Source: Escherichia coli
GTDB taxonomy: Bacteria; Pseudomonadota; Gammaproteobacteria; Enterobacterales; Enterobacteriaceae
Assembly (NCBI RefSeq): GCF_024298765.1
Contig: NZ_CP101210.1
Length of the DNA: 64,000 bases
Strand: one strand, 5' to 3'
Shown: positions 11 through 3,813 of the stretch, piece by piece
Numbering within the stretch: the stretch's first letter is position 1
Layout: every line of letters starts with the position of its first letter
The notes under the pieces: generated by a model
Seen by the model: only the letters and a program-made list of their open reading frames with translations
What the model was told of the DNA's origin: nothing
Database searches by the model: none
Translations under genes and position numbers: made by a program

Positions 11-1189
11 GTGACTATGCGTCTGTTTTCTATTCCTCCGCCCACGCTACTGGCGGGGTTTCTGGCGGTATTAATTGGCTACGCCAGTTCAGCGGCAATA
101 ATCTGGCAAGCAGCGATTGTCGCCGGAGCCACCACTGCACAAATCTCTGGCTGGATGACGGCGCTGGGGCTGGCAATGGGCGTCAGTACGCTGGCTCTGA
201 CATTATGGTATCGCGTACCTGTTCTCACCGCATGGTCAACGCCTGGCGCGGCTTTGTTGGTCACCGGATTACAGGGACTAACACTTAACGAAGCCATCGG
301 CGTTTTTATTGTCACCAACGCGTTAATAGTCCTCTGCGGCATAACGGGACTCTTTGCTCGTCTGATGCGCATTATTCCGCACTCGCTTGCGGCGGCAATG
401 CTTGCCGGGATTTTATTACGCTTTGGTTTAAAGGCGTTTGCGAGCCTGGATGGTCAATTTACGTTGTGTGGCAGTATGTTGCTGGTATGGCTGGCAACCA
501 AGGCCGTTGCGCCGCGCTATGCGGTAATTGCCGCAATGATTATTGGGATCGTCATCGTTATCGCACAAGGTGACGTTGTCACAAATGATGTTGTCTTTAA
601 ACCCGTTCTCCCCACTTATATTACCCCTGATTTTTCGTTTGCTCACAGCCTGAGCGTTGCACTCCCCCTTTTTCTGGCGACGATGGCATCGCAAAACGCA
701 CCGGGTATCGCAGCAATGAAAGCAGCTGGATATTCGGCTCCTGTTTCGCCATTAATTGTGTTTACTGGATTGCTGGCACTGTTTTTTTCCCCTTTCGGCG
801 TTTATTCCGTCGGTATTGCGGCAATCACCGCGGCTATTTGCCAAAGCCCGGAAGCGCATCCGGATAAAGATCAACGTTGGCTGGCCGCTGCCGTTGCCGG
901 CATTTTTTATTTGATCGCAGGTCTGTTTGGTAGTGCCATTACCGGGATGATGGCTGCCCTGCCCGTAAGTTGGATCCAGATGCTGGCAGGTCTTGCGCTG
1001 TTGAGTACCATTGGCGGCAGTTTGTATCAGGCGCTGCATAATGAGCGTGAGCGCGACGCGGCGGTGGTGGCATTTCTGGTAACGGCAAGTGGATTGACGC
1101 TGGTCGGGATTGGTTCTGCGTTCTGGGGATTAATTGCCGGAGGCGTTTGTTACGTGGTGTTGAATTTAATCGCTAACAGAAACCGATAA
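11..1189 (+). CDS. ydcO: BenE-family (benzoate transporter-like) inner membrane protein YdcO
   Basis: 392-aa ORF (GTG start at 11), polytopic hydrophobic protein; length and position convergent with ydcL match E. coli ydcO. Confidence 0.8.
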   Translation: MTMRLFSIPPPTLLAGFLAVLIGYASSAAIIWQAAIVAGATTAQISGWMTALGLAMGVSTLALTLWYRVPVLTAWSTPGAALLVTGLQGLTLNEAIGVFIVTNALIVLCGITGLFARLMRIIPHSLAAAMLAGILLRFGLKAFASLDGQFTLCGSMLLVWLATKAVAPRYAVIAAMIIGIVIVIAQGDVVTNDVVFKPVLPTYITPDFSFAHSLSVALPLFLATMASQNAPGIAAMKAAGYSAPVSPLIVFTGLLALFFSPFGVYSVGIAAITAAICQSPEAHPDKDQRWLAAAVAGIFYLIAGLFGSAITGMMAALPVSWIQMLAGLALLSTIGGSLYQALHNERERDAAVVAFLVTASGLTLVGIGSAFWGLIAGGVCYVVLNLIANRNR

Positions 1190-1195
1190 TAAAAA

Positions 1196-1215
1196 GCGCC
1201 ATCTAACGATGGCGC
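1196..1215. terminator. Bidirectional hairpin between convergent ydcO and ydcL (gcgccatc-taac-gatggcgc)
   Basis: Perfect 8-bp inverted repeat, A-run on one side, sits in the 34-nt gap between two stop codons. Confidence 0.6.
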
Positions 1216-1223
1216 AACTGGTA

Positions 1224-1892
1224 TTACTTTTTGTTAACGTCAAACATGGTGGCATCGGTCGCCATGTCATCAATAACTTGTTTAATATTTTCGAAAGCCA
1301 TTGGCGTACTTTCGTTATTCAGGTCTTTACCTTCGCCCTGACGAACGACTTTGATAACCGGTTTATTAGTCGCTGCATCAATCAGCTCACCTTCAAAATA
1401 CAGGCGAGTATCCATGGTACGGTGGCCCGTCGCCATTTGCGTCCCCGCAACCACTAATGCAACAGGAACCACTTCATAGAATTGCAGCCCTTCTTTGCTG
1501 GTATCTACACCGGTAATGGCCCCACGGAAAATCAGACTACGCGGCCCAGCGGTGGTAACCAGTGGTTTACGCTGCGCAATCGCTTCTTTCATTTCGGTGT
1601 TGGTATAACTCAAAATTTTATCCAGAACTTTCTGCCCTACCTGGGTAGATGGTTTCGGTACCGGATAATAAGTGACTGGGTTCCAGACGATGCTGTCATA
1701 TTTGCTTTGATCAAAACTCGGGTCTACCCAACGTAAAACAGGTTTACCTGTTGCTGAGGTTGTTTCTTTTAAATCAGAGTAATTGTTTAAAAAACCAGAA
1801 TATTTATCTGGCTGGGTGATTTTAGAGGCACAACCAGACAGAGCCAACAAGCCGCATAAAGCTGCAACTTTCGCAATTGATGTGGTACGCAT
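1224..1892 (-). CDS. ydcL: Lipoprotein YdcL
   Basis: 222-aa ORF with lipoprotein signal peptide and lipobox (LALSGC); synteny downstream of tehB. Confidence 0.85.
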   Translation of the reverse strand: MRTTSIAKVAALCGLLALSGCASKITQPDKYSGFLNNYSDLKETTSATGKPVLRWVDPSFDQSKYDSIVWNPVTYYPVPKPSTQVGQKVLDKILSYTNTEMKEAIAQRKPLVTTAGPRSLIFRGAITGVDTSKEGLQFYEVVPVALVVAGTQMATGHRTMDTRLYFEGELIDAATNKPVIKVVRQGEGKDLNNESTPMAFENIKQVIDDMATDATMFDVNKK

Positions 1893-2005
1893 GAATAGTT
1901 TCCTGAGATGATTATATTACTTTCTAAGTTATAGCAAAAAGCGCCGCTTCGTGTTGTGGCAAAAAAAGTGTTGGTGAAAATAAATTTTTTAGCCCCTTTT
2001 CAGAC

Positions 2006-2068
2006 GACATAGTCAATGCCGAAAAAGACATAGTCAATGCCGAAAAAGGGGCTGCCGAAAAAGGGGCT
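2006..2068. repeat. Tandem 21-bp direct repeat (gacatagtcaatgccgaaaaa x2) plus partial third unit, nested in inverted repeat agcccctttt/aaaaggggct
   Basis: Read directly in the tehB-ydcL intergenic region. Confidence 0.85.
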
Positions 2069-2230
2069 AAGTCAATCATCAGTAGTTAAATTTCAGTAAG
2101 TTAAGCTGCTAAAAAATTTCGACTACTGTGATTAATTTCACATCCATTCGATAAAAAATATGCTTACCGAAAAGAAGAACAGTAAACCATCTCAGCGTGG
2201 GGAATTTTCACGCGCCTTGTTCCTAGCGGG

Positions 2231-2824
2231 TCATTTTTTACGTGCCAGCATCGTGGCGAAACGCAGTTTAATACGATTACCGTTGGCGTCGGTGCGGTGC
2301 AGCTCGCCGACGTCTTCATTGTATTTCACCATCTCCCAGCCTTCGTAATATCGACGTAATTCCCCCTCTTTGAAGGCAAACGGGAAGCCGACGGTACATG
2401 GATAATCAGCGGTATCCATCGCCGCCACAATCAGGTTGTAACCGCCAGGTTTAGTGCAACGTTGCATATTGGCAATCAGCCCTGGGATGGTTTTAGCCTC
2501 AAGGAACATCAGCACCACAGTCGAAAGAATAAAATCATACTGTCCATCAAATGTGAGGTTATTCAGATCAACGACCCGGGTGTGTAAATTCTCCAGATTT
2601 TCAATGGATTTAATCCGCTCGACGTTGGCGATACTCATGGCATTTTTATCCCATGCGTCAACATCATAACCATTGGCTGCCAGGTAAAGACTGTTACGAC
2701 CATTGCCACAGCCCAGATCCAGCGTTTTACCCGGTTTAACCACTTTCACCGCTTCCAGCACTTCAGAGTGTGTGCGAGTTAATTCATATTTATCAGTAAA
2801 ATAGTTTTCGTCACGAATGATCAT
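2231..2824 (-). CDS. tehB: Tellurite resistance SAM-dependent methyltransferase TehB
   Basis: 197-aa ORF recognised as TehB ([22 protein letters not shown]..., [14 protein letters not shown] motif); overlaps tehA stop by 4 nt. Confidence 0.95.
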
Positions 2825-3813
2825 TCTTTGTCCTCTGCTTTCATTAAAACGGCGCGCTCGGTTCTGATTAACAATTTTCCCTGCATCAGAAGCGCAAAAG
2901 TACGGATGAGCAGTATTGCAATAATAAAATTGGTAAAGATAAACAGCGGCACCGCCAGCGTATGGAAAAATCCATTATCGCTGCCACTCCCCAGATGCAA
3001 ACCGGTGGTTGCCAGTGCAGATACGCCGAACGAGAAACTCCAGAATGAAGCATTAAATGGCTGGGAGAGATACCATGGCATCAGACGTAGCATAAACAGC
3101 AGTTGCAGCAGTCCATAACCGAAAAGCATTTTCGCCAGCGTGTCACCCTCGCCGCCGTTGACGCTCAGCCAGGCACTACAGGCCACCAGCGCAGGAGCGA
3201 GCTGAATGCCGAGTGATGTCCGCAGCGCCGTGGGTAATTCTCCCGAACTGCGCAGACGCTGCAAGATCACAGGTTCAAGGCTTAGCCATGAGAAAACGCC
3301 TGCGCCTAAAAACACCAGACCGGCGTCGGTGTAGCCCAACGCACCACAGGCCATTGCGCTGATAAAGTTGTTGGCAACTGTCGGCAGATACAGTCCAGGC
3401 GTGGTAGCTTCTTCAGGGTGAGATCCGCGCCATAATCCCGCAGTTTGCCAGGCGGCATAAGCCAACTGAACCACGACGCCAAAACTGAACAGGCACACCG
3501 CCAGTGGGCGAAACCACGGAACAAAACCAATCGCCACCAGCATCGTCGTTGCCGGAAACAAACTCACAAAACTGCTCAGCACTGGATGGCGCACTTCCGC
3601 CAGCACGCTATGCGGAAAGCGTATGAGTCGGGTAATAAATGCGCTAGTTAATAATCCCCAGATGATCATCGCCAGAATCACCAGCCCATCCCCTAACCAG
3701 TGGCTGACCTGCCAAACCTGGCTGGCATAGCGCCAGGCAAATCCCATCCCTATCGTCCCCAACACAATACCAAAGTAGCCTGCCGGCAAATTGAGCACTT
3801 TATCGCTCTGCAT
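2821..3813 (-). CDS. tehA: Tellurite resistance / dicarboxylate-transporter family membrane protein TehA
   Basis: ORF 2821..3921; start set at internal Met ([19 protein letters not shown]...) to give the 330-aa TehA. Confidence 0.9.

Follow-up and report, generated by a model that had tools for sequence, protein, structure and literature searches.

A compound tandem repeat inside the hairpin downstream of tehAB varies in copy number within one Escherichia coli lineage

Two overlapping tandem repeats lie inside an inverted repeat between tehB and ydcL of Escherichia coli, which raises the question of what this structure is and whether the number of its repeats matters. We analyzed a 64,000-nucleotide stretch of E. 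coli DNA (contig NZ_CP101210.1; hereafter the window), in which the minus strand carries tehA, tehB, a 338-bp spacer, and ydcL, in that order. An earlier note, made from the letters of the sequence, had suggested that the structure may be a duplication-prone element with a regulatory or protein-binding role. We favor another answer, to which we give a probability of about 0.6: the structure is a 3′-end or terminator hairpin of tehAB, on which near-neutral duplications by slippage have been superimposed in a single lineage.

The array consists of two perfect, overlapping repeats enclosed by a pair of complementary arms. Tandem Repeats Finder reports a period of 21 at 2006–2048 (2.0 copies, 100% matches, unit GACATAGTCAATGCCGAAAAA) and a period of 15 at 2038–2068 (2.1 copies, 100% matches, unit TGCCGAAAAAGGGGC); the two arrays share ten bases. 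The unit copies are thus head to tail and identical at both periods, as in a variable-number tandem repeat (VNTR). Both arrays are enclosed by the inverted repeat AGCCCCTTTT/AAAAGGGGCT, which a repeat search extends to a perfect 12-bp inverted repeat (100%), TTAGCCCCTTTT at 1989–2000 and AAAAGGGGCTAA at 2059–2070. The arm AGCCCCTTTT is perfectly complementary to AAAAGGGGCT at two places, 2044–2053 and 2059–2068. These searches bear out the nested arrangement set down in the earlier note. Its placement, ~100–180 nt upstream of ydcL and downstream of tehAB, also agrees with our coordinates: the array lies 99–178 nt before the ydcL ATG and at least 161 nt downstream of the tehB stop. Allowing up to three mismatches, no copy of the 21-mer beyond these two occurs in the whole 64-kb window (0.01 expected by chance). 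The K-12 reference annotation contains nothing, RNAs included, in the tehB–ydcL spacer.

Table 1. Features of the window around the tehB–ydcL spacer (position 1 is the first base of the window).
Feature	Position	Strand	Remarks
ydcO	11–1189	+	Gene call
ydcL (DUF3313 lipoprotein), downstream of the hairpin	1224–1892	−	Gene call
Predicted ydcL promoter region	1922–1965	−	Box TTTTTGCCACAACA at 1965–1952 and sigma-S-type extended −10 TGCTATAACTTA at 1936–1925
Tract after the hairpin	1977–1990	−	AAAAAA, then UUUAUUUU; U-rich part ~7 nt past the stem
Whole hairpin element	1989–2070	−	Sense is the tehB/ydcL strand; 36 nt longer than the 46-nt common E. coli form
Arm AGCCCCTTTT	1991–2000	+	On the sense strand, the single 3′ arm AAAAGGGGCU
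21-bp unit, copy 1, GACATAGTCAATGCCGAAAAA	2006–2026	+	Corresponds to the loop of the ancestral hairpin
21-bp unit, copy 2	2027–2047	+	Not in K-12, O157, or UTI89
15-bp unit, copy 1, TGCCGAAAAAGGGGC	2038–2052	+	Holds the first AAAAGGGGC arm; overlaps the end of 21-bp copy 2
15-bp unit, copy 2, plus one base	2053–2068	+	Holds the second AAAAGGGGCT arm; not in K-12, O157, or UTI89
tehB, last gene of tehAB	2231–2824	−	Gene call; hairpin in its 3′ flank

Insertion sequences distinguish some strains at this locus. The ydcO–ydcL gap of the window is 34 bp long (1190–1223) and contains a shared hairpin at 1196–1215. The same gap in K-12 holds an IS609 insertion (insQ/tnpB plus a tnpA pseudogene, ~1.75 kb), which the window strain lacks. 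In E. coli CT01 (NZ_CP081791.1, locus L006, 3044–3895), IS1A is inserted in the tehB–ydcL spacer; there, the query matches over 104 nt only, in one piece, indicating that the hairpin region is disrupted or displaced.

The element is predicted to fold into a stable hairpin on the tehB/ydcL sense strand, where the Escherichia form reads UUAGCCCCUUUUU-CGGCAUUGACUAUGUCGUCU-GAAAAGGGGCUGA. RNA folding of this strand gives −26.3 kcal/mol (z = −5.3) for the K-12 allele and −32 kcal/mol (z = −3.7) for the window allele; both folds are stable, G+C-rich stem-loops of the kind found in intrinsic terminators. The opposite strand of K-12 folds less well (−18.8 kcal/mol, z = −3.8). The K-12 sense fold is an interrupted 19-bp hairpin: lower and upper stems of 13 and 6 bp are separated by a 3-nt bulge, and the loop has 5 nt.

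The duplications leave this fold standing in our models. We denote alleles by their number of 21-mers (A) and 15-mers (B), so that the window is A2B2, and modeled all nine combinations of A1–3 and B1–3 in the sense orientation. Their energies range from −26 to −43 kcal/mol, and the 3′ arm AAAAGGGGCU is paired with a 5′ arm at a probability of ~1.0 in all nine. In these sense-strand models, a duplicated 15-mer contributes a spare 5′ arm, and a duplicated 21-mer makes the loop longer and introduces a small internal helix. No modeled allele shows any sign of losing the hairpin.

E. albertii and four divergent lineages of Escherichia also retain the stem. Across eight Escherichia sequences, 93.8% of cells are paired, compared with at most 72% when the partners are slid. 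Covariation among these eight close, low-divergence sequences was not significant (131–333 of 500 shuffles reached the observed values), and only one stem pair changes on both sides. A permissive Rfam 15 scan of positions 1100–3000 returned best scores of 15.6–20.2 bits, against gathering thresholds of 40–100, with E values of at least 0.46.

Most E. coli genomes carry a single copy of each unit. Aligned with K-12 MG1655, O157 strain 180-PT54, UTI89, and FDAARGOS_1289, the window has one extra 36-bp block, made up of one 21-mer and one 15-mer. These four strains are A1B1 and have the simple form AGCCCCTTTT-cagacgacatagtcaatgccg(a/c)-AAAAGGGGCT, a plain hairpin with a stem of 10–13 bp. We matched the locus in 5,412 of 5,426 complete E. 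coli genomes, and matches sampled across the ranking almost all span 414–416 bp of sequence, compared with 451 bp for the query. The single-copy state accounts for ~98.6% of the 5,426 genomes. A 30-mer across the 21-mer junction, which marks two or more 21-mers, was found in 71 genomes; the corresponding 30-mer for two or more 15-mers was likewise found in 71, and four genomes combine one 21-mer with at least two 15-mers. From these junction counts, which are not a full enumeration, we infer a tally of ~66 A2B2, 2 A3B2, 3 A2B1, 3 A1B2, and 1 A1B3, or 75 genomes in all (1.4%).

Several of these alleles were read directly from their loci. A 57-mer query specific for A2B1 also joins as two pieces in A2B2 genomes; seven candidate loci were therefore inspected letter by letter. 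Direct reading gave A2B2 for the window, 13P477T, and others; A3B2 for 2012C-4502 and MDR_56; A2B1 for 200164 and GPEC996; A1B2 for 2014C-3338; A1B3 for strain 104; and A2B2 with a G-to-A SNP in the outer arm for 22AR0750. E166, which has been sequenced twice, is assigned to A1B2 by the search for one 21-mer with at least two 15-mers only. Copy number thus differs between strains at an orthologous locus (A1B1, A1B2, A1B3, A2B1, A2B2, and A3B2), and the array is not invariant across E. coli, a comparison that the earlier note had proposed. An assembly artifact is excluded by the presence of the same or related alleles in ~75 complete genomes that were assembled independently. Five of the ~5,430 spacer matches are on records labeled as plasmids, which may be mislabeled replicons or plasmid-borne chromosomal segments.

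The expanded alleles belong to one E. coli lineage, comprising the ~75 genomes that have the flanking haplotype of the window. Every expanded-allele genome whose annotation was read encodes TehB WP_000586735.1, and all of these except MDR_56 encode YdcL WP_001261034.1. When the window was collapsed to A1B1 and used as a query, only 69 genomes were at least 99% identical, and the best 60 were all split matches. Together with the shared TehB and YdcL proteins, this shows that the expanded alleles occur on what is essentially one fixed flanking haplotype. The commonest state, A2B2, is probably also the ancestral one, with the rarer alleles arising by later gains and losses of single units. Among the matches listed, 35 of 60 carriers came from chickens, turkeys, or other birds. 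The description of the element as duplication-prone therefore holds inside this lineage, where the 21-mer and the 15-mer change in number independently of each other and five expanded alleles occur, but not for the species at large. The array could serve as a typing marker for the lineage or its sub-lineages; a literature search for tehB together with VNTR found no described marker at this locus.

The E. coli hairpin departs from a canonical intrinsic terminator in what follows its stem. A consensus scan called no canonical terminator at the hairpin on either strand, and, as far as the sequence goes, the earlier remark that the structure is non-canonical, with no U-run after it, holds. Past the stem, the sense strand reads AAAAAAUUUAUUUU and the other strand AAGUCAAUC, with no U-tract starting at 0–2 nt. 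Instead, the E. coli sense strand continues as (G/A)AAAAA, and only then as UUUAUUUU. With its U-rich tract ~7 nt past the stem, the hairpin is non-canonical as a terminator, and since neither strand has a U-tract directly after the stem, efficient intrinsic termination is doubtful.

A hairpin at this position is nevertheless widespread among related genera, where it often has the canonical form with a U-tract. We compared 80 ydcL loci, using one genome per species. In all tehB–ydcL loci with a spacer shorter than 400 bp, the strongest hairpin of the spacer lies downstream of tehB. In the 40+ tehB–ydcL loci, the end of the hairpin is mostly 95–105 nt before the ydcL ATG (range, 75–115 nt), a spacing shared by Escherichia, Citrobacter, Salmonella, Kluyvera, Trabulsiella, Yokenella, and others. 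A few genera with long spacers have it farther upstream, at 153–207 nt. A hairpin is found at the same distance from ydcL in ~35 loci in which the co-directional gene ahead of ydcL is not tehB. Among the latter, Enterobacter, Leclercia, Lelliottia, Raoultella, and Klebsiella grimontii have a textbook intrinsic terminator (e.g., CTGCCCGGCGCGCCTCCGGGCAG followed by TCTTTTTGC), and the tehB–ydcL loci of Trabulsiella, Yokenella, and Atlantibacter also have a hairpin with a U-tract. The comparable U-rich tract of these relatives comes directly after the stem. In total, the E. coli hairpin follows the last gene of its operon at a position where ~75 loci have a hairpin, many with U-tracts. This shared position makes a terminator or 3′-end role the best reading of the E. 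coli hairpin.

Not all relatives have the canonical form. Citrobacter and Salmonella have a hairpin of unrelated sequence, likewise with no U-tract abutting the stem. Their hairpin (loci L025–L044; e.g., GCGTTCAGCAttttttgTGCTGAGCGC) sits at the position of the E. coli hairpin and has a T-run in its loop; by eye, a smaller alternative helix followed by the T-run seems possible, which hints at two mutually exclusive folds. Within Escherichia, a strain with a 127-bp deletion beside tehB (locus L020) still has the hairpin, which there lies ~35 nt past the stop codon. In the supplementary tables of Adams 2021, SMRT-Cappable-seq, and TERMITe, we found no 3′ end or transcription start site for tehB, ydcL, or K-12 coordinates 15021xx–15024xx; tehAB may be too weakly expressed for its 3′ ends to appear there.

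The sequences conserved across genera are located downstream of the hairpin. Two blocks, TTTTTG(C/T)CACAAC and TTTGCTATAACTT, occur there in nearly all genera, and conservation of both ydcL promoter blocks extends over more than 60 loci of Enterobacteriaceae. Judged by its letters, the TTTGCTATAACTT block is a predicted extended −10 of the sigma-S type, which is consistent with a genomic SELEX peak of the RpoS holoenzyme within the tehB–ydcL spacer (PMC5493296). The box TTTTTGCCACAACA could be a factor site; its spacing is wrong for a −35 element.

On the tehB side, 57 bp from the hairpin, there is a predicted CRP site, TGTGATTAATTTCACA. It is a perfect TGTGA-N6-TCACA (2127–2142) and the single match to this consensus in 64 kb, against 0.08 expected. 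E. albertii and divergent Escherichia loci retain the site; Escherichia sp. MOD1-EC7003 has lost it through a 127-bp deletion. It lies ~212 bp from the putative ydcL start in the window and ~176 bp in K-12. Nothing relevant emerged from a literature search that combined tehB with CRP and SELEX. We rejected a CRP-dependent promoter for a transcript through the hairpin, as the putative −10 is weak and not conserved. A sigma-70-like TTCACA-16-TATGCT (2137–2164), antisense to tehB, overlaps the CRP site and is followed by a 62-aa ORF (2160–2348, plus strand) antisense to the 3′ end of tehB; both are probably due to chance.

We interpret the locus as having two layers. The older layer is a hairpin that all Escherichia carry as a single copy between tehB and ydcL, at the site of the intrinsic terminator of the upstream gene in other Enterobacteriaceae. 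In the tehAB mRNA, it most likely forms as a 3′-end hairpin, where it may act as a weak, non-canonical terminator, as a barrier to 3′ exonucleases, or as both. It would also keep read-through from reaching the sigma-S-type promoter of ydcL, which lies ~60 nt downstream. In the younger layer, two overlapping segments of the hairpin, namely the 21-bp loop segment and a 15-bp segment with one arm, were tandemly duplicated in one E. coli lineage. Each unit now varies between one and three copies, presumably through replication slippage or unequal recombination between perfect copies. The borders of the 21-mer and the 15-mer at the initial duplications have a microhomology of 1 nt only; flanking repeats thus do not explain how these duplications originated. 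Because no allele loses its base stem, the variation is probably neutral or close to neutral, neutrality being our assumption. The compound repeat is more than chance, and is an ordinary, mildly unstable copy-number polymorphism.

The strongest rival, which we nonetheless consider unlikely, is that the element is a cis-regulatory DNA site through which a transcription factor acts on ydcL, with repeat number tuning or switching the gene in the manner of a contingency locus. The element is placed ~55–150 bp upstream of the putative sigma-S-type ydcL −10, with the perfect CRP consensus 57 bp farther upstream. Two copies of the heptamer ATTGACT, spaced 24 nt apart, are unchanged in every Escherichia locus; duplication of the 21-mer adds a third heptamer. 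Copy number does differ among close relatives. The loop CATTGACTAT is also invariant in Escherichia and would not be needed by a purely structural terminator, which leaves room for a protein site. However, no factor is known for the ATTGACT motif, and the conserved ydcL promoter blocks are downstream of the hairpin, not inside it. The hairpins of other genera have unrelated sequences, usually with a U-tract, which points to structure and not to a sequence-specific site. The copy-number pattern also argues against a switch: the single copy is fixed in nearly all E. coli genomes, and the lineage has one to three copies of long units, whereas phase-variable loci typically have many short ones. 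The repeat tract lies upstream of the ydcL promoter blocks, not between a −35 and a −10, and in no conserved ORF. The regulatory or protein-binding role raised in the earlier note received no positive support.

Less probable still is that the hairpin belongs to another transcript, either as the 3′ end of a short independent RNA (a small RNA) or as part of a long ydcL 5′ leader. Such a transcript would begin past the CRP site, within the portion of the spacer that is specific to Escherichia. The conservation of that perfect site in E. albertii and divergent Escherichia would fit this arrangement, as would a weak −10-like TAACTT, read by eye on the sense strand at about class II distance, which would put the hairpin ~20–100 nt into the transcript. 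Yet this −10 is not conserved in two of the compared loci (L021 and L024), and a consensus scan finds no sense-strand promoter here. There is also no Rfam match, no RNA annotated in the K-12 reference spacer, and no transcript in the 3′-end and start-site tables searched.

It is also very improbable that the copy-number changes are non-neutral, altering read-through into ydcL or its activation, with gains and losses serving as a tuning knob in a largely poultry-associated lineage. Such an effect would be exerted through the spare 5′ arm and longer loop of the tehAB 3′ hairpin or, alternatively, by shifting the CRP site 15, 21, or 36 bp farther from the sigma-S promoter.

We give almost no credence to two further explanations. 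The repeats could encode in-frame peptide repeats of a small gene, since an ORF is present (1924–2079, minus strand; 51 aa, or 39 aa in K-12) and units of 21 and 15 are multiples of three that keep the frame in every allele. Nevertheless, E. albertii has ATA and Escherichia sp. E1V33 has ACG in place of its ATG, and indels of one base change the reading frame in O157, E. albertii, and E1V33. No Shine–Dalgarno sequence precedes the ATG, and the ORF traverses the ydcL promoter; we rejected it as coding because neither start codon nor frame is conserved in relatives. Membership in a family of dispersed repeats or mobile elements (REP/BIME, ERIC, MITE, or an IS200/IS605-type end) would match the palindromic structure and the nearby insertions (IS609 adjoining ydcL in K-12, IS1 in this spacer in one strain). 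However, a word-11 blastn search with the 75-nt K-12 element across 5,406 genomes placed it at a median of one site in each, the few extra places being the repeat alleles themselves, and the window has no other copy and retains the hairpin while lacking IS609. The element, single-copy in E. coli, is therefore not a REP/BIME, ERIC, or MITE, and the search for other copies of the unit that the earlier note had suggested found no dispersed ones.

The proposed tehAB 3′-end hairpin with its superimposed duplications is of little importance for biology at large. It does provide a clean case in which two overlapping tandem duplications arose in a hairpin and then fluctuated in copy number. As a positional match to the canonical terminators of sister genera that has lost the adjacent U-tract, the Escherichia hairpin is also a minor test case for a degenerate terminator.

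Three known kinds of element come nearest to this locus. With the intergenic VNTRs, or minisatellites, of E. coli MLVA typing, it shares perfect head-to-tail intergenic units (15 and 21 bp) and a copy number that differs among closely related isolates. Unlike MLVA loci, the tehB–ydcL array is a compound of two overlapping units with one to three copies, and is polymorphic only in a lineage of ~75 of 5,426 genomes. The protective stem-loops at Rho-dependent 3′ ends (Dar and Sorek 2018, PMC6061677) are likewise stable operon-end hairpins that lack a U-tract. By analogy with these post-Rho stem-loops, the hairpin could mark a processed 3′ end and stabilize the mRNA, although the ydcL promoter ~60 nt downstream leaves little room for a Rho-dependent zone of the kind described there. 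In comparison with intrinsic terminators, the E. coli stem is not abutted by a U-tract, and its loop is long (~22 nt, with an inner helix of 3–6 bp). Like them, the predicted structure is a stem-loop of high G+C content in the sense RNA, set between the last gene, tehB, and the promoter that follows, and it shares this position with the hairpin-plus-U-tract terminators of Enterobacter, Trabulsiella, Yokenella, Raoultella, and others.
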